From NCBI GenBank assembly GCA_018896215.1, contig JAHINB010000017.1, positions 1-63,394 of the forward strand: a stretch of 63,394 nt of DNA, written 5' to 3'. This stretch comes from Patescibacteria group bacterium (GTDB taxonomy: Bacteria; Patescibacteriota; WWE3; 0-14-0-20-40-13). Below the pieces are notes generated by a model. The model did no database searches, was not told the DNA's origin, and saw only the letters and a list, made by a program, of their open reading frames with translations. Numbering within the stretch: the first letter of the stretch is position 1; each line of letters opens with the position of its first letter. A program made the position numbers and the translations under genes. Shown one piece after another: positions 14,547 to 42,030 of the stretch.

Positions 14547-14558
14547 GTATTCATATTA

Positions 14559-14987: not shown

Positions 14988-15064
14988 TCCCCCCCACAAC
15001 TTATCCACAACTATGACAAAAGCGACAGCTAAAGGCTTATAACTATGACAAACACCCATCTACA

Positions 15065-15105: not shown

Positions 15106-15129
15106 TTTGCTAAGGCTAGTTAATGTTTT

Positions 15130-16912: not shown

Positions 16913-16970
16913 TTTTTTGGGGGAGACACCCCAAAACAATTCCTTGCCTTTAGGGGTGTCTCCCCGAAAT
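16913..16970. repeat. palindromic element family A (GGGGAGACACCCC ... GGGGTGTCTCCCC)
   Basis: 13-nt arms plus flanking TTT/AAA. One of eight copies. Confidence 0.85.
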
Positions 16971-16972
16971 CC

Positions 16973-17291: not shown

Positions 17292-17321
17292 TTGACCTAT
17301 AGTGACGAAAAGTGTTATAAT
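17292..17321 (+). promoter_or_regulatory. sigma70-like promoter of GC-rich cassette 1
   Basis: TTGACC (17292-17297), 18-nt spacer, TGtTATAAT (17316-17321, extended -10). Confidence 0.55.
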
Positions 17322-17426: not shown

Positions 17427-18063
17427 ATGAAGAAGGTTAAGGTTTTTGTTGTGCTAGCGGTCGTCCTGGCCGCCCTTCCGTTGTTCGTCGTCGTCCCCCA
17501 CCCTGCCGAGGCGCAGGTGACCTGCCCTGCAGGAACCTATTATCAGGTAGACCCTGGATCGCCCCAGGGGTTCTACTGTGTGGTGGGGGAACCCCCCGCC
17601 ATCAACCTCTGCGCAAGAATGGGAATGGGTTCCGTCGTACGGCAACGGGTACGACCCCAAAAAGCTCCCCCTCCTGGGTCTTTTCGACAAGATGGTCGGA
17701 GATCCAATTGGGGCACTCTCCCGGATCCAACCGGGTCAACCAATCGAAGAGTGGCCTCAATACCAAAAAGATGCTATCGGCGGTGCAATCGCCGACACAG
17801 TGACCATCGGAATTTTCAGTTGGGTGGACTGGCTCTCGGGTCTTCTCGCAGAAGACTCAGACTCACCGCCCACCTCAGCTCCAGCTCCTCCGGATCCGGA
17901 ACCGACTGTCGCTCCTTCCGTCTCTTCCACGACCGCAGGAAGCCCCTGCGGGTATCAGTGGAAGAGGAGAGGGGACCTAGTCTGCTCCGCCTGGTGCTTA
18001 GCACTAGACGGACAACGAACATGGGCGTTGGACGAAGGGGGATTCGCGAAGTGCGCTAACTAG
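17427..18063 (+). pseudogene. GC-rich secreted ORFan, split by a +1 frameshift at a G5/C6 tract (or phase-variable, or a sequencing error)
   Basis: The signal peptide MKKVKVFVVLAVVLAALPLFVVVPHPAEA-Q is in frame 17427. After 17585-17597 that frame turns into Arg-rich nonsense. Frame 17578-18063 reads as a plausible protein (WEWVPSYGNGYDPKKLPLLGLFDKMVGDPIG...). Confidence 0.6.
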
Positions 18064-27110: not shown

Positions 27111-28138
27111 TCAACCACCCCCAACACCTTTCTCTCCGCCTCTTCTAAATCTATGCCAAGCAATAGTGCTGCAGAAGCCGCCTTGTGTCCCCCACCCCCG
27201 AGCGCCTTAGCGTAAATTGATGTATCCACGCCTTTTTGCGACCTAAAACTCACATGAATTCTTTTGGGTTCTTCCTCATTTAGAGTAAAGCAAAAGTCGT
27301 ATCCTCTAATATCCTTGATGGAGTCCACCGCCCCACCAACTTTATCTGGTTCAATATTGCTATCAAGGTACTCTTGATGGCTAATCTTACTATAACAAAA
27401 TCTTTTCTCATCATTAAACTTAAGATTATTATAAATGATTGAGAGATATTTTTTGTTCTCTTTGGGATAATTGTAAAGCATAATGCTAGACAGTTCTTGA
27501 TAATCCACGGTTGAGATAAGTTCTGCGACAATGCCAAGGAGCTTTGGAGAAATTTTCCATTTCAAATGCCCCGTGTCGGACAAAATACCCAGCAAAATCA
27601 TTTTTAGAATTTTCGGGTGACACCCCAAAACAGTGCCTTTAGGGGTGTCACCCGAAAATTTCCTCCCTTCCCTAAAGATTTGGTAAATTATCTCACTCGT
27701 GGAACTAGCTGTAGTATCCACATAATTTACCCCACCAAAATAAACAAGTTTGTTTCTGACGAAATAACTATTACCGGGGTGGTGATCAAGATTAATAATC
27801 TTGAGATTTGGTGGCAAGGTAAAATTGATTTTGTTATCTTTAGTGTATCTTGCCAAATCGGTAGAATCCAAAGCCAGCAGGGTATCGTATTTGGACATAT
27901 CCATTTTGTCTAACCCAGTCTCCCAATTGACAATTTTGTACTCGGGTAGCAAATCATAAAAACTCCCCATAGTATCGGCGCAAACGACTGTGGGGTTCTT
28001 GCCCATGCTTTGCAAAATGTAGTACGAGGCAAGAGCGCTTCCAAACGAATCCCCATCGGGACGGAAGTGGAGAGGGATAAGCACATGATTACTGTTTGCA
28101 AGAGCCGTTTTAACTTCAGAGAAGGTATTATTTTCCAT
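27068..28138 (-). CDS. DHH/DHHA1 phosphoesterase (NrnA-like)
   Basis: PDGDSFGS, DHH and GGGH motifs in canonical order. Confidence 0.8.
   Translation of the reverse strand: MENNTFSEVKTALANSNHVLIPLHFRPDGDSFGSALASYYILQSMGKNPTVVCADTMGSFYDLLPEYKIVNWETGLDKMDMSKYDTLLALDSTDLARYTKDNKINFTLPPNLKIINLDHHPGNSYFVRNKLVYFGGVNYVDTTASSTSEIIYQIFREGRKFSGDTPKGTVLGCHPKILKMILLGILSDTGHLKWKISPKLLGIVAELISTVDYQELSSIMLYNYPKENKKYLSIIYNNLKFNDEKRFCYSKISHQEYLDSNIEPDKVGGAVDSIKDIRGYDFCFTLNEEEPKRIHVSFRSQKGVDTSIYAKALGGGGHKAASAALLLGIDLEEAERKVLGVVDNFQFSKSKNCFDV
27611..27658. repeat. family A palindrome inside the DHH gene (in frame)
   Basis: TTCGGGTGACACCCC...GGGGTGTCACCCGAAAA is translated as FSGDTPKGTVLGCHPK. Confidence 0.85.
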
Positions 28139-29387
28139 AAACTATTTCTTCCAACCTCTCTTTATTCTTATAATTCCCTACTACTGCCAAGCTTAAGTTT
28201 TGAGGTACAAATTTTTCTTTTAAAAATTTGCTGATGTCTTCACTCGTTACCTCATCTATTTTACGAGCGTATTCTTGAGGTTCTTGCAATTTTCCTTTGA
28301 GTAGTAGATCAAAGGCGTAGTATTCGTTTAATCCCTCGGTGGTTTCTAGCCCCATATACAACCCACCTTTGATATATTCTTTGGCTCTTTCCAATTGTTT
28401 TGGTTTTATTCCCTGTTCTATAATTTCCCTAATTTCCCCTATCATCCCAACTAATGCTTCTTCCAACTTTGCCGTTGCCACCCCGGCCGACATTTTAAGT
28501 ACACCGGTGTCTTGATAATAAACAGCGCTGGAACTGCAATAATACGCCAAACCCATTTTTTCCCGCAGAACCTCAAACATTAAGCTCCCCAACCCGCTTC
28601 CAATATGAGCGTTAAGAACATCAACAACTGGTGTTAGTGATGAGAGCATCCTGCAGGTTTTTATCCCCAATCTTAAATGTGCCTGCTCGCTTTGCCGAGT
28701 CTCCAACAAAATAGTTGACTGCGGATTTTCCTTTTTTTCCTCTACGGACAAACCCTGGGATTTCCACGAACCTAAATCCTTTAAATTTTTTAAAACTTGG
28801 GACAATTCCGCGTTTCCGGCAACGGCAAGGAGCGTATTTTTGGGGGCGTAATTCTTTTTAAAGTTGATAAAATTATCTCTAGTCATGCCCTTGATTGTTT
28901 CTTCGGTCCCCAAAAGCGAGCGACCCAAAACCCCCTTGCCAAAAGTTGCCTCAAAAAATAAATCTCCAGCGCGGTAAATTGGCTCGTCTTTGTGAAGTTT
29001 AATCTCCTCTAATATAACTCCTTTCTCTTTTTCCATCTCGTTGACAGGAAAAGTTGAGTTTAGGTAAATATCGCTTAAAATGTCCAGATATTTTGCCAAA
29101 TGACTCTTGTTTCCCATAATAAAATAACCGGTAAATTCCTGCCAAGTAAAAGCGTTGGTTCGGGCGCCTAAAAGCTCAATTTCTCGATTGATTTCTATGG
29201 GATTGGGTCTTTTTGGCGTTCCTTTAAAAGCCATGTGTTCTAAAAAGTGAGCAATTCCCGAAACCTCCGGGGATTCTACACGACCGCCGATTGAGGTTAA
29301 AATCATTACATTGACCGTCTCGACATTGGGATTTGGGATTGTGAGAATACGGAGTCCTGTTGGCAGAGTTGTAACTTGCGGTTTCAT
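28128..29387 (-). CDS. M16 family (pitrilysin/insulinase-like) zinc peptidase
   Basis: HFLEHMAFKG (HxxEH) motif, two-domain size. Confidence 0.88.
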   Translation of the reverse strand: MKPQVTTLPTGLRILTIPNPNVETVNVMILTSIGGRVESPEVSGIAHFLEHMAFKGTPKRPNPIEINREIELLGARTNAFTWQEFTGYFIMGNKSHLAKYLDILSDIYLNSTFPVNEMEKEKGVILEEIKLHKDEPIYRAGDLFFEATFGKGVLGRSLLGTEETIKGMTRDNFINFKKNYAPKNTLLAVAGNAELSQVLKNLKDLGSWKSQGLSVEEKKENPQSTILLETRQSEQAHLRLGIKTCRMLSSLTPVVDVLNAHIGSGLGSLMFEVLREKMGLAYYCSSSAVYYQDTGVLKMSAGVATAKLEEALVGMIGEIREIIEQGIKPKQLERAKEYIKGGLYMGLETTEGLNEYYAFDLLLKGKLQEPQEYARKIDEVTSEDISKFLKEKFVPQNLSLAVVGNYKNKERLEEIVYGK

Positions 29388-29408
29388 GCGAGTATAATAC
29401 CAGACTAT

Positions 29409-29966
29409 ATGCTTTCCGCAACAGAGTTAAGAAAAGGCATCGTTTTTACTCATGAGAACTCTCCCCAGCTGGTGCTGGACTATAAACATGTTAAAAGCGC
29501 TCGAGGAGGGGCAATTATCAGAGTTAAATGCAAAAATTTAAAAAATGGCGTGGTGCGCGAAATTACACTTAACAATGGAAACAAGGTCGAGGAAGCGGAT
29601 ATTGAACGCAAGACATTTGATTATTTATACAAGGATGCTAGCGCTGTTCACCTAACGGATGTAAAATCCCACGAACAAATTGATCTTCCGCTAGATTTGT
29701 TTGAGGGACAAGAGAAATTTCTTAAAGATGGGGTGACTGTTACAATTTTATTTTTTGAGGATACTCCCCTCTCCCCCCAATTACCCTTAAAATTAGAATT
29801 TAAAGTGGTTTACACCGAACCCGGCTATGCCGGAAACACCTCGACAACAGTTTACAAAGACGCCGAGATTGAAACCGGAGCAGTGATAAAGGTTCCTTTG
29901 TTTATTAAAATCGGTGAGACAATTTTGGTAAATACCAGCACAGGCGGGTATGTCTCTCGAGCCTAA
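29409..29966 (+). CDS. efp: elongation factor P
   Basis: LRKGIVFTHENSPQLVLDYKHVKSARGGAIIRVKCKNLKNG. Three-domain length from Met at 29409. Confidence 0.92.
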   Translation: MLSATELRKGIVFTHENSPQLVLDYKHVKSARGGAIIRVKCKNLKNGVVREITLNNGNKVEEADIERKTFDYLYKDASAVHLTDVKSHEQIDLPLDLFEGQEKFLKDGVTVTILFFEDTPLSPQLPLKLEFKVVYTEPGYAGNTSTTVYKDAEIETGAVIKVPLFIKIGETILVNTSTGGYVSRA

Positions 29967-29984: not shown

Positions 29985-30043
29985 TTTTCGGGGAGACACC
30001 CCTAAAGGCATTTGAATTCTGTTTGGGGGTGTCTCCCCAAAAA
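29985..30043. repeat. family A palindrome, intergenic
   Basis: TTTTCGGGGAGACACCCCTAAAGGCA...GGGGGTGTCTCCCCAAAA. Confidence 0.85.
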
Positions 30044-30079
30044 ATCTTCCACTCATTTTTCCCCCAATGTCACTATAGG

Positions 30080-30108
30080 TTGCATTTTGGCAAATTTTGT
30101 TCTATAAT
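30080..30108 (+). promoter_or_regulatory. sigma70-like promoter of GC-rich cassette 2
   Basis: TTGCAT, 17 nt, TATAAT. The -10 plus initial transcribed sequence (TATAATCTCCCTAGTTTG) is nearly repeated at 48491-48510, upstream of cassette 6. Confidence 0.55.
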
Positions 30109-30177
30109 CTCCCTAGTTTGATTCGAATGCCCGCGGGTGTCGTGTGGCAAAAAACCAACAACAAAAGGAGCTCAACA

Positions 30178-30654
30178 ATGGGACGCCAAATTCTAATCGG
30201 AATACTCACCGTCTTGATTTTCATCAATGTGATGCTGACCGGAGCGTTGGTGGATGCAAAGTTCCTTCACCTCTACCACGCATGCTTACCAGAAGACTGC
30301 GACTGCAGTGCACACCCGCCCATGTCCCCGACCGAGCTTGCATCGAGACCGACCCCGCAGCCGCCGCGGGTGATTGTATCTGCAGACCAAATGTACGCCA
30401 TCACAGAATACACGACGAGCAGGTTCGAGGGCGGCTACTTCTACCTGTCGGGAATCCGCGAGACGGTCCCAACGGAGTGGAGGTTTGGGCAGGACTGGTG
30501 TGACTGGTCCCAGATCAGCCCGCACCTCCACAAGGCAAAAGGTTTGACCGTGGAGGTTGAGGTGAAGAGTACCAGTCTGGTTTTCCGTGTCCCAGACACA
30601 GATAAACCAAACTGGGAACCCTACATCTGGACCTGCTACCCACCCGCCCGCTGA
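30178..30654 (+). CDS. GC-rich secreted/membrane-anchored ORFan
   Basis: AAGGAG-N7-ATG. N-terminal hydrophobic segment MGRQILIGILTVLIFINVMLTGALVDA. GC3-rich codons unlike neighbouring genes. Confidence 0.6.
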   Translation: MGRQILIGILTVLIFINVMLTGALVDAKFLHLYHACLPEDCDCSAHPPMSPTELASRPTPQPPRVIVSADQMYAITEYTTSRFEGGYFYLSGIRETVPTEWRFGQDWCDWSQISPHLHKAKGLTVEVEVKSTSLVFRVPDTDKPNWEPYIWTCYPPAR

Positions 30655-30670
30655 ACCCCCGCCTAACCCG

Positions 30671-30747
30671 AAACCGCCGAGCGGTGTGTTAAAGAAAGTG
30701 ATCTAAAAAATCACGATCCCAAACACATCTCCCGGCGGTTTAGTTTT
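30671..30747 (+). terminator. long hairpin terminator of cassette 2
   Basis: AAACCGCCG...CGGCGGTTT with nested GTGTGTT/AACACAT arms, then agtttt. Confidence 0.45.
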
Positions 30748-30802
30748 GCAAAAAACTCACTTTTTTGTAAATTGTACTTGACAAAAACTGCAAAAGACTT
30801 TT

Positions 30803-31975
30803 TTAGACAAAGGCGGTAAGGAATTTGTCCGCGCTTATGACTCTAACATTACCAACCATTATGTCAATTTTGGGCTGAAACACTACTTGATACAAAAAAG
30901 GAATTCGCAGTCTCGCGCCGAAATAATTCAAATGAGAAGAGGGTATTGTGTCAGAAAGCTTTGCCTCCACCGCAAACCACGGCTTATTGTCCACCGCAAC
31001 CAGAAAATCCACTTCCCGACCCTCCGCATCCCGCAGATAGTAAAGATCAGAGCGAAACCCAAAAACATCGCGCAGATAATGGACGAATTTTAATAGATGC
31101 CCCGCTACCAAGTTCTCAAACCTTGCGGACTCGTCCGAAAGAACCGACCAATCCCACAAATACAGCTTCGTCATTTTCTTCAAAGAGCGCAGCATTTTTT
31201 GCCGGAACGGGGAAAGGCGAAAATGGTAGTAAAAAAGCTCCAAAATGGCAAGATAGTTGGCAACCGTTTTGTAGGCAACTTGCAAATCCTCGCAAAGCGC
31301 GTTTACCGAAAGCAAAGACCCAACTTTCTCCGGAAGGAGGTCCGCCAAAATCTGCAAGGTGGAAACATCCCCAATATAACGCAGATCCCGAATCTCCTCC
31401 TTGATCAACCGATCCACCCGATCGCTTTGCCAGCGACGCCAAAATGTGATGTTTCTTTTCGAAAACGGTTCGGGAAACGGACCAAAGCGCGACAATCTTT
31501 GCAAAATCTTCTCCCCATCTACGAGATCAACAAAATGTAATTCCTCAAAAGGCTTTGCTCGCCCCTTAGAACCGGTAAGCTCCACCAGGCTAAAAGGGTG
31601 CAAAACATAATACCGGCATCGACCAGAAAGCGAATCTCCGCCTCGGCGATACAAATCCATTTTGGCGCTTCCCGTAACCAAAAAACTGTGTCGTTCCCCC
31701 AGTCTGTCAAACAGACCTTTAATATAGGTTTTCCAGTGCCGAAACTTGTGAAGTTCGTCAAAAATCAGCAGTTCCGCCTTGGCAGGAAACCTGTAGCCTA
31801 CAATATCTTTGCGATCCGGCTGGTAATCCCAGTTAAAATAGGAAAAATTTGGATATGCAAATTTCCCAACCTGCTTTGACAAAGTAGTCTTTCCAACCTG
31901 CCTTGGTCCTCCAAGAAGCACGATTTTTTCCTTAACATCTTGGATTATTTCCTGCAAAAGATAGCGATTCTTCAT
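30803..31975 (-). CDS. AAA+ ATPase with DUF4143-type C-terminal domain (COG1373-like)
   Basis: Walker A GPRQVGKTTL, Walker B LLIFDELH. Same 390-aa size as the ATPase at 61049-62221. Confidence 0.75.
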   Translation of the reverse strand: MKNRYLLQEIIQDVKEKIVLLGGPRQVGKTTLSKQVGKFAYPNFSYFNWDYQPDRKDIVGYRFPAKAELLIFDELHKFRHWKTYIKGLFDRLGERHSFLVTGSAKMDLYRRGGDSLSGRCRYYVLHPFSLVELTGSKGRAKPFEELHFVDLVDGEKILQRLSRFGPFPEPFSKRNITFWRRWQSDRVDRLIKEEIRDLRYIGDVSTLQILADLLPEKVGSLLSVNALCEDLQVAYKTVANYLAILELFYYHFRLSPFRQKMLRSLKKMTKLYLWDWSVLSDESARFENLVAGHLLKFVHYLRDVFGFRSDLYYLRDAEGREVDFLVAVDNKPWFAVEAKLSDTIPSSHLNYFGARLRIPFLYQVVFQPKIDIMVGNVRVISADKFLTAFV

Positions 31976-32041
31976 ACTAACTTTTTATACCAGAAGCAAA
32001 AAAGTTTGTCAACTTTTTGGAAAGCGGTAAAAATTATCTGG

Positions 32042-32231: not shown

Positions 32232-33542
32232 TCACTCCCCCTCTCTTCTTTCTGCCTCGAAGAACTTGGTAATTGAACCCTTAAAGAACAAATCCAGTTC
32301 TCCCGTGGGACCGTTACGGTGCTTGGCAATTAATAGCTTAACATTATTTCGCGCGTCGTCGTCAGGTCGGTACAAAAACGCCACTACATCGCTGTCTTGT
32401 TCAATGGATCCGCTCTCGCGAAGATCCGAAAGTTGCGGGACTTTGCCACCGCGTTGCTCCACCGCCCGCGAAAGTTGAGCGCAGGCTAAAACTGGAACTT
32501 TTAATTCCCGCGCCAAATTTTTTAGAGCCTGGGAGATTTCGGATACTTCTTGTACTCTATTTTCTAAATTCCTCCCCCGAACCAATTGCAAGTAATCAAC
32601 TATGATAAGTTTTACACCCTTATCCATATGCAACCTTCGAGCTTTAGTCCGCATTTCCATAACCGAAATTCCCGGAGTATCATCAATATATATTGGCGCC
32701 TCCGCCAAAACTCCCATGGCATCCCCCAAATCTTTAAAGTCGTCGTCAGTTAAGTTTCCAGTGGATATTTTCCAGTTGTCCACATTGCTTTGCTTGCTGA
32801 GCATCCGATCAACCAACTGATCCCGACTCATTTCCAGCGAAAAAATCCCTACAGGAAGGTTGTGTTTTACCGCCGCAAACTGGGCAATGTTAAGCGCCAA
32901 TGCCGATTTACCAACCGAAGGACGACCCGCCATAATCACCAAATTAGATTCTTGCAAACCGTTTAAGAGTTTATCTAACCCCTTAAGACCCGTTGGCACT
33001 CCCCGCAAGCTTCCCTTGGTTTTATGTAGTTCTTCTATACGATCAAACGATGTTTCCAAAGTAGATCTAATGGGCACAAAATCCTGCTTTAAATACTCCT
33101 GCGAAATGCCAAACAATTGCATTTCTGCCTTGTCCAGCAACTCGTTGACATTATCGGTATTGTCAAACCCCAGCTCGCCGATAGAACCAGCAACCGAAAT
33201 TAACGATCTTCTGACATAAGCATCTTTGATCAGATGGGCGTAAGCTTCGATATTTGCCGAGGTCGGAGTGGCGTTAACCAAATCCGTCAGGTAGCTTACT
33301 CCCCCCGCTTTAGTCAATTCGTCTTTGCGTTTAAGCCTTGCTGGAACTGTGACTAAGTCTATCGGCCTGCGCTTTTCGTATAATTCCAAAATAGCGCTAA
33401 AAATTATAGCGTGTTTATTTTCGTAAAAATGCTCCGGGTGTAAAAAATCGGCAACTTTAATTACCGCTTCGGGGTCAATCAGCATAGCGCCCAAAACGCT
33501 TTGTTCGCTTTCTAAATTTTGGGGAGGAAGTCTTAATGCCAT
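32232..33542 (-). CDS. dnaB: replicative DNA helicase DnaB
   Basis: PPQNLESEQSVLGAMLID N-terminus, Walker A GRPSVGKSA, RecA-like C-terminal domain. No intein-sized insertion. Confidence 0.95.
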   Translation of the reverse strand: MALRLPPQNLESEQSVLGAMLIDPEAVIKVADFLHPEHFYENKHAIIFSAILELYEKRRPIDLVTVPARLKRKDELTKAGGVSYLTDLVNATPTSANIEAYAHLIKDAYVRRSLISVAGSIGELGFDNTDNVNELLDKAEMQLFGISQEYLKQDFVPIRSTLETSFDRIEELHKTKGSLRGVPTGLKGLDKLLNGLQESNLVIMAGRPSVGKSALALNIAQFAAVKHNLPVGIFSLEMSRDQLVDRMLSKQSNVDNWKISTGNLTDDDFKDLGDAMGVLAEAPIYIDDTPGISVMEMRTKARRLHMDKGVKLIIVDYLQLVRGRNLENRVQEVSEISQALKNLARELKVPVLACAQLSRAVEQRGGKVPQLSDLRESGSIEQDSDVVAFLYRPDDDARNNVKLLIAKHRNGPTGELDLFFKGSITKFFEAERREGE

Positions 33543-33608
33543 AGCTCCCAGAATTTACCACAAAATCTTACTCTTGATAAGGCTTTGAGTTTGGACCATA
33601 ATATAAAA

Positions 33609-34196
33609 ATGCAAATTTATAATTTGGGCTATTCCTGCTTTAAAATAAAAGGGGCAAAGTGCGATATTTTGTGCAACCCCTACAACCCCAAAGAAATTGG
33701 GCTTTCTTACCCCAGCAAACAAACAGCCGATATTGTGGCAGTCAGCAGCAGCAAGGAAAATTTTTTAGAGCGCATTGACCCGGGGTATTTTTTAATTAAC
33801 ATGCCCGGAGAATACGAAATAAAAGGCGCCTATGTTTGGGGATACAAGCTTACCGCCAGCTCGCGGGCGTTTATGTTTTTAATTGACGGGTTTAAAATTG
33901 CTTACCTGGGAAAAACCAACCAAGTCTTAAGTGACGATTTAGCAGGCGAATTTTCCGAGGCCGATATTGCCATTCTTCCTATTGAATGCGAGGGTTGTTT
34001 GGACGCCGAAGGAGCCACCGAGGTGGTCAGCCAAATTGAACCTAAAATTGTTATTCCCTCCTATTATAAAACTTCCGAGGCGCCAAAAAAGTTTGTTGAT
34101 GCCATGGGAAAAATTAAAACTTTGGAACTGGACAAACTGTCTCTAAAATCGCCCAGCGATTTGCCCAAGGAAACAGAGCTTGTAATTATTAAGTGA
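33609..34196 (+). CDS. MBL-fold (Lactamase_B_3-like) protein, degenerate metal motif
   Basis: Size and pattern (LGYSCFKIKG..DILCNPY...ADIVAVS) resemble UPF0173-type hydrolases, but no HxHxDH motif is seen. Confidence 0.45.
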   Translation: MQIYNLGYSCFKIKGAKCDILCNPYNPKEIGLSYPSKQTADIVAVSSSKENFLERIDPGYFLINMPGEYEIKGAYVWGYKLTASSRAFMFLIDGFKIAYLGKTNQVLSDDLAGEFSEADIAILPIECEGCLDAEGATEVVSQIEPKIVIPSYYKTSEAPKKFVDAMGKIKTLELDKLSLKSPSDLPKETELVIIK

Positions 34197-34204
34197 GATT
34201 ATAA

Positions 34205-34260
34205 ATTAGAGGGTTTCATTCTGTTCCTTCTGCTCCATCTCAACCCTCTAATCCCTCATT
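34205..34260. repeat. repeat family F copy (ATTAGAGGG ... CCCTCTAAT inverted arms)
   Basis: Shares ..CTTCTGCTCC.TCT...CCCTCTAATCCCTC with 22098-22140. Confidence 0.6.
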
Positions 34261-34261
34261 T

Positions 34262-35632
34262 ATGCAAAAGCCCTTACCAATTATAAAAGACGCTTACGAC
34301 TATGCCAAATCTACCCGGGGCAACATTACTCACGCCAAAGAAACCGTAAAAGTTTTAACCCAAAACGAAATAACTGACCCGCCAACCATTGTGACTGCCA
34401 TTTTGCACGACTGCCTGTATTACGGCAAAGGAAAACTTTCCGAGATTAAAAGTTTTTTTGGAAACGATGTGGCAAACATGGTTGTGGCTCTATCTAGGAT
34501 TGAAAGAATTCACCTAACTCCAAACGACCCTAAAAATCACGAAAAAATTCGTCGTGTTATTATGTCGCTATCTTCTAATTATAGAGTCTTTTTGATCAAA
34601 ATCTCTTGCCGGTTAGCAAGACTTCGAGCGTGTGGAAAATCCAAAACCCCCGAGTGTTTGTTGGTAGCAAAACAAGCCTTGTCGATTGATGCCCCACTTG
34701 CCAAGGCATCATCGTTAAAAAACATTGCGGGAGAGTTAAACGATTTGGGATTTAAAATCTCCGAACCCTTAAAGTATAAACAATTGAAAAATCTTATTCT
34801 TGATAAGGAAGTTTTTTTAAAAGAACGACTTTTGGGCGTGAAGAACAAATTAGAGTTGCTAATGGAACAAGCAAGCGTTTCGGCAGCCATTTCTTTTCGT
34901 AAAAAATCCCCCTACTCCACCCATCTTAAAATTTTAAAATACCTAGAAAAACGCAAGATTAAAGAGTACGGCGTTGAGAAAATCCATGATCTTATAGGTT
35001 TAAGAATAATTGTCAGAACCGAAAAAGATTGCTACAAAGCGCTGGATGCAGTACAAAAAAATTGGGGGGTGGAAATTAGCGAATTTGATGACTACATTGC
35101 CCGCCCCAAACCCAACGGCTACAAATCTATTCATACAATTATAAAAGTGGGACAGGCGATGTATTGCGAAATTCAAATTGTAACCACAAAAATGGAAGAA
35201 TTTAATAATTTTGGAGGGGCATCTCACTTAGGTTACAAAAATCCCAATTGGGTTAAGACATATATAAACAAGTTTGTTTCTGACGAAATTAAAAGCGGTG
35301 ATAAAACCTCCAATTTTAATCCCTTTTCCAAAACTATTTTCACCTTTACCCCAACAGGAGACATTATAGAATTGCCAGCAGGCGCAACTTGTGTTGATTT
35401 TGCCTACAAAATTCACACCGATTTAGGTAACAGGTGCGAGGGGGCATTGGTTAATGGAATAATCAAAAAACTAGAATACGAGTTGCAAAATGGTGACGAG
35501 GTAAAAATAATCCCCTCAAAAAGAAGGCCTTCTCCAATTGCCAAATGGATTGACTTTGTCAAAACCCCCGAAGCCAAAAAGCAAATTCGCCACTACAGCA
35601 ACATATTATCGGGTACTACCCGATTCGGGTAG
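34262..35632 (+). CDS. RelA/SpoT homologue (HD-like, synthetase and TGS domains), short form
   Basis: ILHD HD-like region; synthetase DLIGLRIIV...GYKSIHT; TGS IFTFTPTGDIIELPAGATCVDFAYKIHTDLG. Confidence 0.8.
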   Translation: MQKPLPIIKDAYDYAKSTRGNITHAKETVKVLTQNEITDPPTIVTAILHDCLYYGKGKLSEIKSFFGNDVANMVVALSRIERIHLTPNDPKNHEKIRRVIMSLSSNYRVFLIKISCRLARLRACGKSKTPECLLVAKQALSIDAPLAKASSLKNIAGELNDLGFKISEPLKYKQLKNLILDKEVFLKERLLGVKNKLELLMEQASVSAAISFRKKSPYSTHLKILKYLEKRKIKEYGVEKIHDLIGLRIIVRTEKDCYKALDAVQKNWGVEISEFDDYIARPKPNGYKSIHTIIKVGQAMYCEIQIVTTKMEEFNNFGGASHLGYKNPNWVKTYINKFVSDEIKSGDKTSNFNPFSKTIFTFTPTGDIIELPAGATCVDFAYKIHTDLGNRCEGALVNGIIKKLEYELQNGDEVKIIPSKRRPSPIAKWIDFVKTPEAKKQIRHYSNILSGTTRFG

Positions 35633-36391
35633 TACCCGAATTTTTCCTATTCTAACAACAAATTATCGATGTAGGGTTTTTTGATGTCACTGTCGCCATC
35701 CAAGGGATCTATGTAAGACTCCACAAAGTCTTTATATCTTGCAACAGTCATATCGCCCAACACCTCGTCCCAACAAAGCCAACCTTCTTTTATATTTTTA
35801 TTTATGTAGTAGTAGCTAGAAAATCTATAATCTTTAAGGGAATCTTTGCTCACCATTTCCAAAGGATTTAAATGGATATAGCGAGCAAGATGTAAAAACT
35901 GCTCCCCTGTTGTAATCGGGACTGCTTTATAAATCGCTTGGTAAAGTTTACCTACACGATCATTTTTTTCATTAAAATAATTAGTGTAGTTAGTACAAAT
36001 CTTTTTTGTAAGATCTGTTAATCCCTCCTTTTTCTTTAATTTGACGAGCAGGTGGTAATGGTTAGGCATAAGACAAAACGCTAAAAGTGAGATTTTATCG
36101 TAAGAATAATTCGGGGTTACAAATATTGACTGTTTCGTCTTAGGATCTTTGCGTTCTAAAACAAAACCAGGCTCTAAATAACGCCTTAAATTATTAATAA
36201 AAACATGGTAATCCTCCGAATCTTGAAATATTACTCTTCGTTCTACCCCTCGGTTATAAACATGGTAATACGCACCTTCCGCAAAAACTTTATAGATGTT
36301 CCTTGATGGCATAGTTACAACATTAATATCCTATTTAGCAGAAGTCAATACCTAAAGCAAATATTCGGGTAGTACCCGAATCGGGTACTAC
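35608..36391. mobile_element. REPtron-like unit: RAYT gene bracketed by inverted family-B double palindromes
   Basis: Left flank 35608-35645 is CGGGTACTACCCG-attc-GGGTAGTACCCG. Right flank 36364-36391 is CGGGTAGTACCCG-aat-CGGGTACTACC, the same sequence flipped. Confidence 0.7.
35647..36312 (-). CDS. REP-associated tyrosine transposase (RAYT; IS200/IS605 Y1 HUH family)
   Basis: YHVYNRG, LMPNHYHLLV (HUH) and the YIHLNP region; about 220 aa. Confidence 0.8.
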   Translation of the reverse strand: MPSRNIYKVFAEGAYYHVYNRGVERRVIFQDSEDYHVFINNLRRYLEPGFVLERKDPKTKQSIFVTPNYSYDKISLLAFCLMPNHYHLLVKLKKKEGLTDLTKKICTNYTNYFNEKNDRVGKLYQAIYKAVPITTGEQFLHLARYIHLNPLEMVSKDSLKDYRFSSYYYINKNIKEGWLCWDEVLGDMTVARYKDFVESYIDPLDGDSDIKKPYIDNLLLE

Positions 36392-36452
36392 CTTATAGCT
36401 AAAGCGCTAAATAGCCCTTTTATGCAAAACATTGTTGTAGTAAACTTACATT

Positions 36453-37760
36453 ATGGATCAAAGTACAACCCAAACCTTAAAAGGCTTTAGGGATTTTTTA
36501 CCCGAAAAAATGCGGGTGCGCAACTGCGTCCAAAAAATTCTGCAGGAGTCGTTTGAGGAATTTGGTTTTGAGCCTTTGCAAACGCCCTCTTTAGAATATG
36601 CCGAAACCTTGTTAAAAAAATACTCCGCTGAAAACGACAAGGAGACTTATATTTTTGAAGATTTGGGGAAAAGAAAGGTCGGTTTAATCTACGACTTGAC
36701 TGTCCCCGTCGCAAGAGTGTTATCACAAGTTGACAATAATATTGTGATGCCGTTTAAACGCTATCAAATTCAACGCTGTTACCGCGCCGAAAAACCCCAA
36801 AGGGGTAGATTTCGCGAATTTGTCCAGTGTGATATTGATATTTTTGGAGTGACTTCGGAACTTGCCGATGCCGAAGTCTTGGCTTGCGGTTATAAAGCCA
36901 CCCAAAAACTAGGATTTACTAATTTTTCTTTTTTGATTAATGATCGTAATACACTTTTTGAGATTTTGCAAAAAGCCGGTGTTTCCGAACCCAATAAACA
37001 ACTTTCGGTTCTGCGCTCGCTAGATAAGTTAGAAAAGATCGGGCAAAAGGCGGTCTCCCGAGAGTTGGCATCAAAAAGATTCCCCACAGCCCAAACAGCC
37101 CTAATTTTTTCCCTTATCTCCCAGAGCAAACCCTCGGAAAACTTGATTAACATTACAAACTATGCGGTAGCTTTAGGCGTACCTAAAGAAAAACTGATCT
37201 TCTCCCCTACTCTTTCGCGCGGAGCGGATTATTATACTGGCATGGTGGTCGAAGGAGTGGTTACTGAACCCAAAATTGGTTCAATTTTGGGAGGCGGCAG
37301 ATACGATAAATTAATTGAATCTTTTGGTGGCAAACCAACCCCGGCAACGGGAATTAGTTTTGGTTTTGAACGCGTTTGCGAGGTGGTGGAAGAACTCGAT
37401 CTTTTAAAAAATGTCATTAATGCTTATCCCGCCAAGGTCTTGATTTGCCCCATTCTTAACAATCCTCAAGATCTCTTACCCGCCACAATGCGCGAAGCGC
37501 TTTGGGTGGGCCAAACTCTTAGACAAAATAACATCCCAACAGATATATTTTTAAAACCCCAAGACTCGTTGGCTAAACAAATAAAATACGCCAATGCTAA
37601 AAATATTCCTTATATTATGGTAATTGGATCAGATGAGGTGGAAAAAAATGTGGTATCGTTAAAAAATTTAGCCACTCGCGAGCAACAGTCGTTACCTTTA
37701 AAACAAGCTATTAAATTCATAAATCTCCCCGCCTGCCACACCAAAAGTTGTCATTGCTGA
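36453..37760 (+). CDS. hisS: histidyl-tRNA synthetase
   Basis: LKGFRDFLP, QRCYRAEKPQRGRFREF (motif 2), GGGRYD and a C-terminal anticodon-binding domain. Confidence 0.93.
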   Translation: MDQSTTQTLKGFRDFLPEKMRVRNCVQKILQESFEEFGFEPLQTPSLEYAETLLKKYSAENDKETYIFEDLGKRKVGLIYDLTVPVARVLSQVDNNIVMPFKRYQIQRCYRAEKPQRGRFREFVQCDIDIFGVTSELADAEVLACGYKATQKLGFTNFSFLINDRNTLFEILQKAGVSEPNKQLSVLRSLDKLEKIGQKAVSRELASKRFPTAQTALIFSLISQSKPSENLINITNYAVALGVPKEKLIFSPTLSRGADYYTGMVVEGVVTEPKIGSILGGGRYDKLIESFGGKPTPATGISFGFERVCEVVEELDLLKNVINAYPAKVLICPILNNPQDLLPATMREALWVGQTLRQNNIPTDIFLKPQDSLAKQIKYANAKNIPYIMVIGSDEVEKNVVSLKNLATREQQSLPLKQAIKFINLPACHTKSCHC

Positions 37761-37817
37761 CTTCTCGTGATGCAACAAGCGGGGCGAAACGGTCAACTAC
37801 CCACGAGTCACGAAGAA

Positions 37818-38036
37818 TCAGCGTCTGTCAAGAAGAAAGATGTTGACCCTACATTTGTCATCAAACTTCCCCATCTTTCCCAGGACATCGGCTCTGATTT
37901 GGTGAATGAGACCCCTCTGATCCGTGTCAGAGGAGCTGTTTGAATAGCGGACGCCAGTGACCGCCCGCCACCATCCTACACGAATGCTTCCAACGCGCCG
38001 TTCAGCAAACCCCGCCCAAACCATTTTAGATGTCAT
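37818..38036 (-). CDS. GC-rich small ORFan (72 aa), second gene of cassette 3
   Basis: GGAGG-N6-ATG. The ATG lies 1 nt after the stop of the upstream gene (taa g atg). Confidence 0.4.
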   Translation of the reverse strand: MTSKMVWAGFAERRVGSIRVGWWRAVTGVRYSNSSSDTDQRGLIHQIRADVLGKMGKFDDKCRVNIFLLDRR

Positions 38037-38037
38037 C

Positions 38038-38322
38038 TTACCCCTCCTGTCCACGATGTGGAAACAGTTCCACCTTAGCCTCTGCGGAAAATCCAAGAGG
38101 CTCCGTCTCGGTTCCCGTGAGAACAACTCGCTGAACCCAACCGCCTCCGAAAACGAATCTTGCTAAGCCCCTCCTTGCGAGGTCGTACACAGCAGACATG
38201 ACCTCGCTTTTCCGGAGACCAGTCCTTACGCAGAGGCTTCCCAAATCTACCGCTGATCCTCCCTTAGGGAGTTTCCTCCAAACAATCTCCGATCGCATTT
38301 TGTGAACCCTCTTTTTTGCCAC
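38038..38322 (-). CDS. GC-rich small protein with winged-helix-like segment, first gene of cassette 3
   Basis: AAGGAGGG-N6-GTG. The segment DLGSLCVRTGLRKSEVMSAVYDLARRGLARFV resembles a wHTH recognition unit. Confidence 0.45.
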   Translation of the reverse strand: MAKKRVHKMRSEIVWRKLPKGGSAVDLGSLCVRTGLRKSEVMSAVYDLARRGLARFVFGGGWVQRVVLTGTETEPLGFSAEAKVELFPHRGQEG

Positions 38323-38428
38323 GGTACACCCTCCTTTTTCGCGATGGTTGGTTGGATTGACAACAACTTACTATAGGGATTTTGCTATAAAAGAAGAGAA
38401 AATGCAAGAGGAAGAACGGCAAATGCAC

Positions 38429-38466
38429 GATTAGGGATAATCCCAAATTTGGGATTATCCCTATTC
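38429..38466. repeat. family C palindrome (TAGGGATAATCCC-aaattt-GGGATTATCCCTA)
   Basis: Same arms as 12760-12796. Confidence 0.8.
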
Positions 38467-38529
38467 TAATGGGGTGAGACCCTAAAACAGCATTGACACC
38501 ACAAAGATACCATGATATTAATCATATCA

Positions 38530-38814
38530 ATGAATAATACAAACCAAAGAGACAAAATAATTACCACCAATGTTAGATTCCCAGAGTCACAATGGTTACA
38601 AGTAAAAGTAGAGGCCGCCGAAATGGGCTTTAGCATCAACCAATACATTAACCGTATTATCGAACAAAGCTCTATGCAAAAACGATTGGCTTTAACCATT
38701 AAAGATAACAAATCCCCCGCTGTTTCATTCTGGAACTTACCAAAAATTGCCAAAAAATGGTCTAAACGAAAAGTATTAGAGATGTCAGAAGAAGATAAGA
38801 TAATTTATGCCTAA
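38530..38814 (+). CDS. ribbon-helix-helix-type antitoxin (VapB-like)
   Basis: TNVRFPESQWLQVKVEAAEMGFSINQYINRIIEQ. Overlaps the start of the PIN gene by 8 nt. Confidence 0.65.
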   Translation: MNNTNQRDKIITTNVRFPESQWLQVKVEAAEMGFSINQYINRIIEQSSMQKRLALTIKDNKSPAVSFWNLPKIAKKWSKRKVLEMSEEDKIIYA

Positions 38815-39229
38815 CAAATCAAAGGAAACCCTCTTTATAGATACAAGCTTTTTTAAAGCAATGTTAGATTCGTCCGACGACTTTCACAACAAAGCAGTAA
38901 AAACATTGAGTACAATCGAAAAAAACGGCAACCCACTTGTTACAACAAATTACATTTTAGATGAGGCATTTACATTAATTAGACAAAGGATGGGAGTTGG
39001 GGCATTAAAAATATTTAGAGAGGCGCTATTACAAAACGAATGGAGATTAAAAGTAGCCCGAACAACAATTCAAGATGAAGAAAATGCTTGGGATTATATG
39101 CTTAAAGACTGGAGTAATTTATCTTTTACCGATTGTGTATCTTTTGCAGTAATGAAAAGGCTAAGTATACAACACGCCTGCACATTTGATTCTCACTTTT
39201 CCAGCGCGGGCTTTTCCACGGTTCCCTAA
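38807..39229 (+). CDS. vapC: PIN-domain toxin VapC
   Basis: LFIDTS (Asp1), ILDEA, SFTDC and FDSHF acidic residues at canonical PIN spacing. Confidence 0.85.
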   Translation: MPNKSKETLFIDTSFFKAMLDSSDDFHNKAVKTLSTIEKNGNPLVTTNYILDEAFTLIRQRMGVGALKIFREALLQNEWRLKVARTTIQDEENAWDYMLKDWSNLSFTDCVSFAVMKRLSIQHACTFDSHFSSAGFSTVP

Positions 39230-39237
39230 AAAATAAA

Positions 39238-39306
39238 ACCACCTTGCAGGTCTTTAAACGCCAGTGTTTAAACGCCAGTGTTTAAAGATTATTCCTGCAA
39301 GGTGGT
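39238..39306. repeat. 13-bp-stem hairpin (ACCACCTTGCAGG / CCTGCAAGGTGGT) whose loop holds a 14-nt tandem repeat (TTTAAACGCCAGTG x2.5)
   Basis: Read directly. Lies between vapC and tRNA-Thr. Confidence 0.7.
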
Positions 39307-39309
39307 CAA

Positions 39310-39379
39310 AGCGGATGGCGGGACTCGAACCCACAACCCAGCGATACCATCGCTGTGCTCTACATTGAGCTACATCCAC
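39310..39379 (-). tRNA. tRNA-Thr (anticodon GGU)
   Basis: Acceptor GTGGATG/CATCCGC (one G-U pair), anticodon arm CAGCG-ATGGTAT-CGCTG, T arm GTGGG-TTCGAGT-CCCGC. No CCA encoded. Confidence 0.85.
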
Positions 39380-39394
39380 AACGAAAAAAACGAT

Positions 39395-39830
39395 TTCTGG
39401 TTCCCCGGGTGGTCTCGTAAGTGCCCCTGTGGCACTCCTTACACACCATCTCCCTGTCTAGCACTAAACATGACAGGGCGTTTTCCGTTAAACTACGGGG
39501 GTGATGTGATTACCTAGCTAGCCGCGCTCGCAGACGCCTCCCCTAGAGGCCGAGAGCGGACACTTTCCGCAGTTTCCGTTTCTCCCTTCGGGACAACCCT
39601 GCCCCAGAGGGAGTGCGCAGTGAAGCTCGAGGTAGCGCACCTCGCTACCACGCCGTTGCTTTTTGGCCCTCGCCCGAGGGCGGCGCGGCGGCGTCGTCTG
39701 CCGACGCACCGGCGGTCTACGGGTCGGTTGATCTAACTCCTGCAGGGCACGCTCGTGACGGACGAGGTTCTTACACATTTGGGGCTCCTTCCCTACGAGG
39801 AAACAAATTACGGGAAAAGCTCCCGCAAGC
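39395..39830 (-). other. GC-rich, hairpin-dense segment (cassette 4): either a structured ncRNA with RNase-P-catalytic-domain-like motifs or a small Arg-rich ORF (39518-39778)
   Basis: Many perfect 5-7 bp GC hairpins. On the minus strand: GGAAAGUGUCC (39568-39558) pairs with GGGCACUU (39426-39419); GCACUCC (39616-39610) pairs with GGAGUGC (39438-39432); a hairpin followed by AGAUG lies at 39478-39447. Alternatively, AAGGAG-N6-ATG precedes the 86-aa ORF. Confidence 0.3.
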
Positions 39831-39885
39831 TCCGTAAAAAACCGGAAAAAATGAACCTACTAAGCAGATTCACTCTTTCCGATTC

Positions 39886-39945
39886 ATTAGGGACGATCCC
39901 TAATACAATTCCGATCAAATGCCTCTTAAGGGATCGTCCCTAAAA
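39886..39945. repeat. family C palindrome (TTAGGGACGATCCCTAA ... TTAAGGGATCGTCCCTAA)
   Basis: Arms separated by about 25 nt. Solo arm pair at 42303-42323. Confidence 0.75.
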
Positions 39946-40142
39946 AGGCAAAACACGCCAGGGGGCGCATTCATCGTTATAGCCATAGTCTCTTGTAAGT
40001 CTCTTCCATCTCGTAAATGGCTATTGAGGGGTATTCTACCCCACCTTTTAACACTATGTCAACCTTTTTTAAAGAAAAAACTTAAAGCGCCTTGTTGGTC
40101 GGAAATGCATCCCGTAACCAAAAAGGCGCTTCTTCTAAAAAA

Positions 40143-40829
40143 CTAGAACGGCTCGCCCGAGATTGGTCTCTTCGGGGTAGAGACCAGCGAGATGAATGTC
40201 TTCGACATTGGCACTTGGCAGGTAAAGGTTACCTTCCAGACATAAAAAACTGATTGAGCGCTCTCCCGATAAGAGTAAGCGAACACGCCTACTCTCCTAC
40301 CCTGAACCCAACCCACCACCACTGGGGGAATCTCTGCCTCCCCATACCCCCAGGCAGTACCCACATAGTCCCCATTGACCACCCGCACCCGACCGATTTC
40401 AGCCCACCCGGAGGATGGGACTTCCACGGTCAGAACGAAGTCGACAAAATCTCCTGCGAAATCGGGACTGGAAGGCTTGGGAAGAGCCAGCCCCACCAAC
40501 TTGCAGGAAATAGCGTCCTTGGGAACCCATCCGTAGGATCCCACATAGCCACTCTTCTTCCCTGGATCAGACCTGTCCAAAGTTCCGAACAGATCTGGGT
40601 AGTTGGGGTCCATGGCCTTCCAGGGCGCCTGCATCACCGCCGCGGGGTCGCGCAGCTCCACTACTCGGACCGCCACCGAATCCGCTCCCGCGGGAGCGAC
40701 AACCCCCAGCTCCTCTACCCCCAAAACTTCCGGGAGTGGGGAGATTGAAATTTCCTGCGCCCGAGCGGGTGCAGGAACGAGAAACGACGACACTACCAGT
40801 ACCAGCAAAACTACGATTTTCGCTTTCAC
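40143..40829 (-). CDS. GC-rich secreted ORFan (cassette 5)
   Basis: AAGGAG-N7-GTG at 40829. Signal peptide VKAKIVVLLVLVVSSFLVPAPARA-QE. GC3-rich codons. Confidence 0.6.
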   Translation of the reverse strand: MKAKIVVLLVLVVSSFLVPAPARAQEISISPLPEVLGVEELGVVAPAGADSVAVRVVELRDPAAVMQAPWKAMDPNYPDLFGTLDRSDPGKKSGYVGSYGWVPKDAISCKLVGLALPKPSSPDFAGDFVDFVLTVEVPSSGWAEIGRVRVVNGDYVGTAWGYGEAEIPPVVVGWVQGRRVGVFAYSYRESAQSVFYVWKVTFTCQVPMSKTFISLVSTPKRPISGEPF

Positions 40830-40902
40830 TGTTTTCTCTCCTTTGCGAGAATTGTGAAATGGGATTAAATTGCACACCCCGTTGGGTGGCAAACGAACCC
40901 TC

Positions 40903-40931
40903 ATTTTACAACAAAAACACCCCCCAGTCAA
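40903..40931 (-). promoter_or_regulatory. sigma70-like promoter of cassette 5
   Basis: Minus strand: TTGACT (40931-40926), 17 nt, TAAAAT (40908-40903). Preceded by AACTATAGGA. Confidence 0.5.
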
Positions 40932-40998
40932 TCCTATAGTTAGAAACTCCCTAAATTTTGCTCTTGTTTAAGACCTCCTTTCCTCTTAAACTAATCTC

Positions 40999-42030
40999 AT
41001 GACCAACCGCAAAAAATCCCTCATCGCCCTCGCCTTGGTAACCCTGATCTGGGGAGGCGCCACCCCAGTGATCAAACTGGGTTTAAACAGCCTTCCCACC
41101 TTTACTTTTTTATTCATCAGACTTGCGATCTCCTCAATTGCGGTGCTTCCAATTCTGCTTGTTAAACTCAAGAAAACCCCTCTCAAACTCCCGCAAATTC
41201 CGGCGCTTTTTTTTATCCCGTTTTTTGGTCAAACAATATCTTTGGGACTGGTTTTTTTGGCGCTTGATCGCACTTCGGCGCTCGACGGAGCGATTCTGGG
41301 ATCAATGAGTCCTATTATGATATCGATTGCGGGAGTAATTTTGTTAAATGAGGTTATTACGAAAAGAGAAAGAGTGGGAACAGCAATTGCCCTTGTGGGA
41401 TCGTTGATAATTATTTTTCAGCCTTGGGCAGAATCAGGATTTTCTTTGCATGACGGCTTTAGAGAAAAACTTTTGGGAAATGTTTTAATGGTAGGCTATC
41501 TTCTTGCCAACACCGCCTATACTATCGCCACTAAAAGATATTTTAAAAAATACCCTAAAACCGATCCGTTTATTAAAATTTCGCTGGGATTTATTGTTGG
41601 AGCCATCACCTTCTTTCCCCTTTCGATGCTCGAGTTGTCTTCTTTGACCACAGTCTCCGGGATCGCGGCGCTGACTTTTCCCCCGTTGACCGCTATACTT
41701 TCCCTGCTTTACATGGCAATTTTTTCTGGTGTTATCGCCTATTTCTTATACGAGATGGCATTAAAATATATTGAGGCTTCAGAAGCCAGCGTCTTTACCT
41801 ACCTGCAACCGGTTATTGCCATCCCCGCTTCTTTTATCTTGCTGGGTGAAGTTCCGACAGGAGTGTTTATGATGGGCGGGGCGGTCATAGCAATGGGAGT
41901 ATATTTAGCAGAAACCAAAAAATTCCCCTACTTCCCCGCTTCTTTTAAAAGGTCTTTCAAAGACTTAACTCCACTCATCACTTGCTTTTTTTCTATTTTT
42001 TTAACCATTTTAGCTTTTCGCTCTTCTTGA
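40999..42030 (+). CDS. DMT-superfamily transporter (two EamA domains)
   Basis: [11 protein letters not shown] plus 10 TM helices. The last ~100 nt overlap rpmE on the opposite strand. Confidence 0.8.

Follow-up and report, generated by a model that had tools for sequence, protein, structure and literature searches.

The window analysed here is a 63,394-nt stretch (63 kb) of Patescibacteria group bacterium contig JAHINB010000017.1. Between efp (29376-29966) and an AAA_14/DUF4143 gene it carries a short GC-rich gene without known relatives, cassette 2, whose open reading frame (ORF; 30178-30654, +) encodes 158 amino acids. Groundwater populations hold two forms of this gene that have the same promoter, leader, first 43 codons and 3' hairpin, and that differ from codon 44 onwards so thoroughly that the two segments cannot be aligned. 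We consider it somewhat probable that cassette 2 is a resident, lineage-specific gene for a small exported protein with a dimorphic ectodomain, the forms of which are exchanged by homologous recombination. Both alleles would then use one promoter, one leader, one 43-residue export or anchor segment with a Cys cluster and one terminator hairpin, and would display wholly different outer domains of ~115-121 residues on a product that may be either a single-pass membrane-anchored or a Sec-secreted protein. The 240-nt and 71-nt flanks would serve as homology arms for swapping the body between strains, and the locus would be a miniature replacement island inside a single ORF. The elements of the cassette were read from the sequence and then tested as described below.

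The second form was found through P0002, the only other related protein among 5.8 billion sequences, which is encoded on European Nucleotide Archive (ENA) contig L001. Over window positions 32232-40157 this contig is 98.2% identical to the window, the differences being clustered in a few patches. At cassette 2, it matches 30068-30307 (+; 240 nt) at 100% and 30671-30741 at 97%, and the 363 nt between these conserved blocks (30308-30670, +; allele A, comprising codons 44-158, the stop and 16 nt) are replaced by an unalignable 379-nt segment (L001 241-619; allele B) in which the frame is kept. The replaced unit runs from codon 44 to the stop plus 16-20 nt. The 5' block holds the octamer ACTATAGG (30072-30079, +), the promoter, the 5' untranslated region (UTR) and codons 1-43 (MGRQILIGILTVLIFINVMLTGALVDAKFLHLYHACLPEDCDC; MGRQ...CLPEDCDC), and the junction falls within the ORF at codon 43/44 (junction sequence GAAGACTGCGACTGCA). 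The variable bodies are 115 amino acids long in A and 121 in B, and BLASTP of body A against body B returns no alignment.

Metagenomic reads place both forms at the same position in living populations. Six groundwater runs were examined for the alleles, and every run that contains the locus is a metagenome of groundwater or biofilm. Where runs are mixed, the assembly graph has the 5' block as a separate 240-nt unitig whose depth is about the sum of both bodies: 42.8 for the 5' module against 6.9 for body A and 39.9 for body B in run X5, 18 against 10.9 and 6.5 in X3, and 43.5 against 10.4 and 21.4 in X4. Past 30307, B is the only continuation besides A. In X5, upstream window sequence continues into the 5' block at full depth, which places B at the same locus. 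The alleles coexist in three of the six runs and only two were found; X1 and X2 carry allele A only, at uniform depth, and a scan of Joint Genome Institute (JGI) metagenomes yielded one contig, with allele A only. An assembly chimera at cassette 2 is ruled out by the uniform depth in X1 and X2 together with the presence of the window sequence in four independent assemblies. The locus is polymorphic, with two alleles, in aquifer samples that several studies took over roughly a decade.

Such a pattern invites comparison with programmed antigenic or phase variation, in which an expression site is joined to silent body cassettes by site-specific recombination or gene conversion. The sharp in-frame junction right after the export segment and the conserved hairpin boundary would suit this explanation, as would the tyrosine recombinase (13599-14546) and Y1 transposase (35647-36312) genes in the window and the over-represented ACTATAGG, which lies at the module's 5' edge and recurs at other cassettes. 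There are analogous systems in Neisseria (pilE/pilS), in Mycoplasma (vsa/vpma) and in Ureaplasma (mba), the latter two described in PMC2268961 and PMC3047005. We nevertheless regard programmed variation as very unlikely here. No further copy of the modules, the junction or either body occurs in the 63-kb window; X1 and X2 have allele A alone; and only two forms were seen across the six runs. In X4, furthermore, the depth of B (21.4) is close to that of the junction lacking the AAA gene (23.2) and the depth of A (10.4) to that of the AAA gene (10.8), which ties A to the AAA gene and B to the gene-less structure and points to separate strains. The body depths in X3 match those for presence and absence of the AAA gene more poorly.

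Exchange between strains by homologous recombination has a ready setting in this population. Differences between strains are patchy, housekeeping genes included, and because divergent patches occur even in such genes, the population shows extensive mosaic recombination. We infer that recombination was also the route by which the bodies of cassette 2 were exchanged. Between strains that are nearly identical elsewhere, divergence exceeds 10% in patches of the 3' part of hisS (37328-37568) and of proS (56176-57237).

Where the GC-rich sequence came from is a separate question. The window as a whole is 42.7% GC, and its backbone is an ordinary chromosome, with gyrB/gyrA, an H+-pyrophosphatase, a type IV pilus cluster, ruvC, lexA, dnaB, relA/spoT, tRNA synthetases and ribosomal proteins. 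A first-pass annotation of the sequence had described cassette 2 as foreign in composition, and a computed profile of GC content at third codon positions (GC3) confirms that the gene is a strong outlier: GC is 0.564 and GC3 0.698, against a GC3 of 0.416 (sd 0.042, maximum 0.499; z = 6.7) in 52 backbone ORFs, and the highest GC3 of any 158-codon backbone segment is at most 0.589. Plain recent horizontal acquisition from a high-GC donor (a bacterium, plasmid or phage) behind a resident promoter would account for a GC3 of 0.70 beside 0.42, for a location within a short variable stretch that adjoins tRNA-Leu and an accessory gene that is a candidate for defence, and for the gene being an ORFan. 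We think this decidedly unlikely. A word-indexed search of 5.8 billion proteins with A, B and cassette 6 (the GC-rich gene at 48559-49434) returned conspecific sequences only; contigs from two of the source samples occur in this collection. The only additions from an exhaustive HMMER scan, which covered 1.84 billion representatives, were two giant repeat proteins. We rejected these as homologues because each score adds up 6-10 weak repeat matches and was judged not significant per domain. No relatives of A, B or cassette 6 were present among IMG/VR viral contigs.

Recent acquisition also sits poorly with the composition of the locus itself. The two bodies, divergent to saturation, have one composition (GC 0.594 and 0.592, GC3 0.730 and 0.727 for A and B, with nearly equal base frequencies) and are joined to one N-terminal module, whose 43 conserved codons are already GC3-rich (27/43, 0.63, p = 0.004). 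The sign of the GC3 skew is that of the local backbone, fitting the host strand, in five of five cassette segments tested. Recent import from a sampled donor is unlikely on these sequence grounds, and the failure to find a homologue among 5.8 billion proteins upholds the earlier argument against simple recent transfer, at least where sampled high-GC sources are concerned. Because homologues are lacking, the bodies are equal in composition, the constant codons are GC3-rich and the skew follows the host strand, the evidence suggests that this gene class has long been GC-rich in the lineage and has been kept so, and that the composition is not a mark of recent import. The lineage is itself poorly sampled, since a GTDB scan with EF-P across 185,579 species genomes found nearest relatives that are only 33-45% identical.

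The equal composition of the bodies raises the alternative that a single ancient gene has diverged in place, its ectodomain under diversifying selection and its GC content raised by GC-biased gene conversion, with no foreign insert at all. The similar lengths of the two bodies would fit such a history, as would the Pro/Ala/Thr-rich linker that starts both, the shared K-x-KG-x-x-VE motif, the common linker-then-domain layout, the similar predicted C-terminal order of a helix followed by strands, and the z = 5.0 that a global alignment of A and B reaches relative to shuffles. PMC4450053 reports that recombination and GC3 are linked in bacteria. The local alignment, however, reaches only z = 2.35, BLASTP detects no local similarity, and the global score perhaps arises from a shared compositional order. 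The shifts, +0.28 in GC3 and +0.11-0.16 at second codon positions (GC2), are also, to our knowledge, far larger than any gene-conversion bias reported for bacteria. We consider divergence in place unlikely, and retain the resident gene with exchanged ectodomains as our preferred reading. Judged from the sequences, the bodies may nonetheless be very old diverged alleles of one gene rather than unrelated captures.

The predicted product is a small protein with 5 Cys, 5 Trp and 15 Pro residues. After a positively charged start, MGRQ, it has a single strongly hydrophobic segment at residues ~5-25 (Kyte-Doolittle 2.45), modelled as a helix by AlphaFold2 (AF2) run with no alignment at a predicted local distance difference test (pLDDT) score of ~90, the only confident part of the model. 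The hydrophobic helix, of 21 residues, is followed by 17 constant residues that include three Cys (CLPEDCDC); beyond them come a Pro/Ala/Thr-rich linker and a body of ~95-100 residues. The N-terminus reads either as a Sec signal peptide, possibly cleaved after VDA26, or as a signal anchor, and export of the protein is predicted from these features. The lipobox, which we take to have the consensus [LVI][ASTVI][GAS]C, is not matched on inspection by eye: the nearest Cys, in LYHAC36, lies 11 residues past the hydrophobic segment and has Y and H at -3 and -2. Taken together with the population pattern, this anatomy would suit a role at the cell surface, in adhesion, in recognition or in escape from recognition by phages or partners, with the two forms presumably kept by balancing or frequency-dependent selection.

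The features that argue for a real coding sequence must be set against the view that the ORF is open by accident in non-coding GC-rich DNA, such as an unrecognised RNA or a decayed remnant. The GC-rich DNA here has long ORFs on both strands, and the cassette lacks homologues, a confident fold and a transcript contig, all of which that view would explain. Yet the frame that the shared start dictates is open in both alleles, for which the chance at body composition is 0.024 for A and 0.018 for B, ~4e-4 jointly, and in this frame both bodies have the order GC3 > first-position GC (GC1) > GC2. The stop codon stands 16-20 nt 5' of the hairpin in both alleles, and no RNA family was found at the cassette in Rfam at either the gathering score or E <= 0.1, which returned three tRNAs only. 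Codon-position GC, the spacing of the Shine-Dalgarno (SD) sequence and the hydrophobic N-terminus all fit a coding gene. Assemblies and runs differ within the body by one single-nucleotide polymorphism (SNP), 30366 G>A, a synonymous change at the third position of its codon. Because of the SD-to-ATG spacing, the codon-position GC, the open frames and the synonymous SNP, the sequence evidence favours a real coding gene, and an accidental frame appears highly improbable.

Several findings weigh against the interpretation that we prefer. AF2 gives pLDDT values of 58.7 for A and 44.0 for B, so neither allele has a confident fold, and three sparse metatranscriptomes contain no contig over the cassette, its neighbours being at very low depth. 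Homology reveals no function for the protein: neither allele, nor any of the other GC-rich ORFs, has a match in Pfam, NCBIfam, PHROGs or PADLOC. The case for a surface-variation role consists of the anatomy of the gene and the population pattern. Only two alleles were found, and the nearest EF-P relatives, at most 45% identical, supply no outgroup genome from which to read the age or direction of the replacement. The body depths in X4 sum to 31.8 against 43.5 for the 5' module, which makes a third, rare form possible. Finally, a 13.7-kb backbone control has many divergent-allele joints too; the idea that the GC islands are the only variable places was rejected on this account, and because the control equally has joints we do not claim that the GC-rich loci are special recombination hot spots.

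One slender lead to function is a pairwise similarity of 24 bits over 50 residues between residues 65-113 and the start of a discoidin repeat in protein P0004. We treat it as a lead only, as the database score of P0004 is inflated by its six repeats, and the cassette 2 protein has no Pfam match to PF00754 (F5/8 type C, discoidin), a jelly roll of ~130 residues.

All the elements that the first-pass annotation had read around the gene (the promoter, the AAGGAG SD, the 158-residue ORF with a hydrophobic N-terminus, the long hairpin, and the efp and AAA neighbours) are present. ACTATAGG directly abuts the -35-like hexamer of a sigma-70-like promoter candidate (30080-30108, +) read from the sequence, with TTGCAT at 30080-30085, a 17-nt spacer and TATAAT at 30103-30108. 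A consensus promoter scan did not call this site, the -35 of which has 3/6 matches to TTGACA. The leader begins with CTCCCTAGTTTG (30109-30120, +), and the 5' leader gives no significant sign of being a structured element (fold z = -0.17). The SD, AAGGAG, is at 30165-30170 (+), 7 nt 5' of the ATG at 30178. Downstream, the limits of the conserved 3' block coincide exactly with those of a long imperfect hairpin (30671-30741; 71 nt, -38.9 kcal/mol, z = -6.1 against shuffles) that is likely a terminator; an intrinsic-terminator scan did not class it as canonical.

The same annotation had gone further and proposed a shared AT-rich expression module placed in front of different GC-rich genes, on the strength of the near-identity of the -10 and initial leader of cassette 2 with those of cassette 6. 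That near-identity is real: TATAATCTCCCTAGTTTG (30103-30120) and TATAATTCTCCTAGTTTTG (48491-48509, +) are two 1-nt indels apart, the leader start of cassette 2 having its counterpart at 48497-48509. The motif CTCC.?TAGTTT has only two sites in the window on either strand, those of cassettes 2 and 6, and the local alignment of their 160-nt upstream regions beats 499/500 shuffles (p = 0.002, 10 pairs tested). But the resemblance is short, covering ~19 nt (the -10 and ~12 nt of leader) with nothing beyond ~24 nt, and does not amount to a module common to the two cassettes. What stands of the modular architecture is the 240-nt expression and export module fused in frame to two GC-rich bodies at cassette 2, together with the variants of cassette 5 that keep the promoter only up to the -10 and those of cassette 1 that put another promoter and signal peptide on a conserved body. 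Nor is this module purely AT-rich with its edge at the boundary of promoter and gene, as had been supposed, given the GC3 of its 43 codons and a junction inside the ORF. The modular idea was partly right, for a different reason: what the alleles of this single locus have in common is the module, the predicted export signal included.

Cassette 2 invites comparison with several known systems. Replacement flexible genomic islands of aquatic prokaryotes (PMC4033161) are multi-gene clusters of several kb such as glycosylation clusters. As in the islands treated there (PMC4033161), one position is filled in all strains, the flanks are near-identical and the contents cannot be aligned; the predicted product is surface-related, the composition is atypical, variants coexist, and exchange is attributed to recombination in the flanks. 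The cassette 2 unit differs from them in measuring 0.36 kb, in lying within one ORF with the frame kept, and in having two forms only. Cassette 2 combines a single locus, conserved flanks, non-homologous contents and coexisting variants, at a far smaller scale than such islands. Whereas replacement flexible genomic islands are usually AT-rich, this one is atypically GC-rich.

The mollicute vsa/vpma and mba systems (PMC2268961, PMC3047005) switch within a genome by inversion among clustered silent genes at short sites. They resemble cassette 2 in their constant 5' region with promoter and signal, in their alternative C-terminal bodies and in a junction just past the export signal. A conserved 5' region followed by alternative bodies is what we find here too, in the form of the 240-nt module that ends at codon 43. 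Further likenesses are a presumably small genome, a possible dependence on a host, and a Xer-type tyrosine recombinase in the same genome. Unlike the mollicute lipoproteins, which have a lipobox and often tandem repeats, cassette 2 has no canonical lipobox and no repeats; and unlike the mollicute switches it has no silent copies or inverted junction repeats in the 63 kb, its forms behaving as strain alleles.

Type IV pilins fall into allelic groups in which the N-terminal helix is conserved while the globular domain varies. The cassette 2 protein likewise has a conserved hydrophobic N-terminal helix and a strain-variable, Cys-containing C-terminal domain, with its alleles at one locus, but it differs from pilins in lacking a class III signal or N-methylation motif and in lying outside the pilus cluster (544-5314). 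The protein of the window allele (P0001) has no PF07963 match at E <= 0.1 and begins MGRQILIG, without the N-methylation motif, whereas the window's true pilin (544-1032) has an N_methyl motif. Integron cassettes are similar in being short, mobile-looking units that end at a structured imperfect hairpin. Cassette 2 differs from them in that it has its own promoter, its swap starts inside the ORF, the hairpin is a constant part and the unit is single. An integron cassette was rejected, there being no intI, attI or array, with efp and AAA_14/DUF4143 as neighbours, and the junction being GGTTTAG in the window and GGTTTCT in L001 in place of GTTRRRY, with a hairpin that is not cassette-specific. 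Polymorphic toxins (contact-dependent inhibition (CDI), Rhs or LXG) were likewise set aside: the constant N-terminal part is only 43 amino acids, the 16-20 nt from stop to hairpin leave no room for an immunity ORF, and no toxin family matches. The bodies are also not those of a diversity-generating retroelement target, as they are unalignable instead of differing at A alone and no body repeat exists in the window; no reverse transcriptase (RT) domain was found among the scanned neighbours.

Uncultured small-genome groundwater bacteria are thought to be contact-dependent, and their contact proteins are mostly unknown ORFans. Cassette 2 offers a precisely delimited, naturally dimorphic ectodomain on a constant module whose export function is predicted. 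It can serve as a handle for following allele frequencies against phage or partner dynamics, for expressing and solving both domains, and for asking why a set of genes sits ~0.28 in GC3 above its genome without a detectable donor. More generally, a recent foreign origin should not be assumed automatically for GC-rich islands in such genomes.

That set comprises at least five GC-rich ORFan islands in the 63 kb, each a gene or small operon. Besides cassette 2 they lie at 17427-18063 (+; cassette 1), 37818-38322 (-), 39518-39778 (-), 40143-40829 (-; the gene of cassette 5) and 48559-49434 (+; cassette 6). Four island genes each appear to combine a promoter-like site with a structured leader and a terminator hairpin, and cassettes 1, 5 and 6 have signal-peptide-like starts. 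The octamer ACTATAGG occurs six times in the window against 0.94 expected (0/100 shuffles reach six), always between genes, at 15066-15073 (-), 15097-15104 (+), 17296-17303 (-), 30072-30079 (+), 38370-38377 (+) and 40933-40940 (-); in cassette 5, as in cassette 2, it abuts a -35-like hexamer. The promoter regions of cassettes 1 and 6 have AAnCCCCCTACCnCACAA in common. These features could be read more boldly, as a compartment set apart by its composition, with genes peculiar to the lineage that mostly encode small exported proteins and whose modules (promoter, leader or signal, and body) are reassorted among strains. Its GC-richness would be actively maintained, whether through a process devoted to this (strongly biased conversion, for example) or through an unsampled GC-rich donor pool or mobile element common to the genes, and a common regulator might act through ACTATAGG and CTCC(C)TAGTTT. 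We rate this as quite unlikely. Were it true, a streamlined and probably host-dependent bacterium would be arranging its surface repertoire, and generating variety in it, in a manner not described before.

The other islands vary between strains in ways of their own. Cassette 1 is frameshifted in the window by an extra base at 17604, which is missing in X2-X4, where an intact 211-residue protein with a signal peptide is encoded. Other strains have a swapped promoter, leader and signal peptide on a conserved cassette 1 body (joints 17285->17501 and 17379->17488) and a replaced terminator segment (joint 18133->18183). A 12-nt sequence, GTCACTATAGGT, is common to the cassette 1 and 2 promoters in opposite orientation and resembles the initiation core of T7-type promoters. 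Cassette 5 (40128-41047) encodes a 228-residue protein with a signal peptide and stands at about half the flank depth in X4; in an X2 variant the promoter is common up to the -10 and then diverges (joint 40458->40903). Cassette 6 equals JGI contig L024 6001-6837 save for hypervariable patches at ~49060-49150 and ~49225-49300, and a form with a 376-nt deletion (49080-49455) is dominant in X3 and X4. Its YEPNDTC motif is reminiscent of pre-peptidase C-terminal domains, but the protein has no match in Pfam.

The remaining islands are a pair of GC-rich ORFans of 94 and 72 amino acids (37818-38322, -) and an 86-residue basic, Cys-rich protein (39518-39778, -), and they flank a PIN toxin-antitoxin pair and tRNA-Thr. 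Palindromic AGGGA(T/C)...TCCCT elements lie at 38425-38466 and 39883-39941, the second of which is copied elsewhere in the genome; the whole may be an integrated element.

Around cassette 2 itself, the AAA_14/DUF4143 accessory gene (30803-31975, -) lies beside tRNA-Leu and matches the PADLOC candidate defence family PDC-S01 (E = 9.5e-47). Fold prediction places a second, A/U-rich hairpin at 30745-30771, between the convergent genes. L001 is without the AAA gene: 30742-32040 is replaced there by 128 nt with a repetitive extragenic palindrome (REP)-like hairpin, directly behind the 3' hairpin of the cassette. Behind efp, the window has a REP-like hairpin, GGGGAGACACCCC...GGGGTGTCTCCCC (29985-30046; fold -34.4 kcal/mol, z = -4.5), at which metagenome reads have multiple loose ends, and reads in X4 and X10 contain the joint 30741->29986. 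It is one of seven window copies, all behind genes (the others at 16914-16971, 27608-27660, 53401-53459, 54930-54988, 55916-55974 and 56430-56484), and reads indicate further copies in the genome.

The Y1 transposase gene (35647-36312, -), of the IS200/IS605 type or REP-associated, is flanked by palindromes CGGGTACTACCCGA... at 35609-35648 and 36356-36392, which are distinct from the REP-like hairpin family. The tyrosine recombinase gene (13599-14546, -) adjoins a 580-nt AT-rich spacer (region 13599-15129) in which motifs resembling AATTAGTCCAATT recur and two ACTATAGG sites form a palindrome. Two stretches, 49515-49570 and 55300-55350, have very high metagenome depth, reaching ~2,500 at 55323-55330 in X1, and are probably repeats or sequence shared with abundant organisms.

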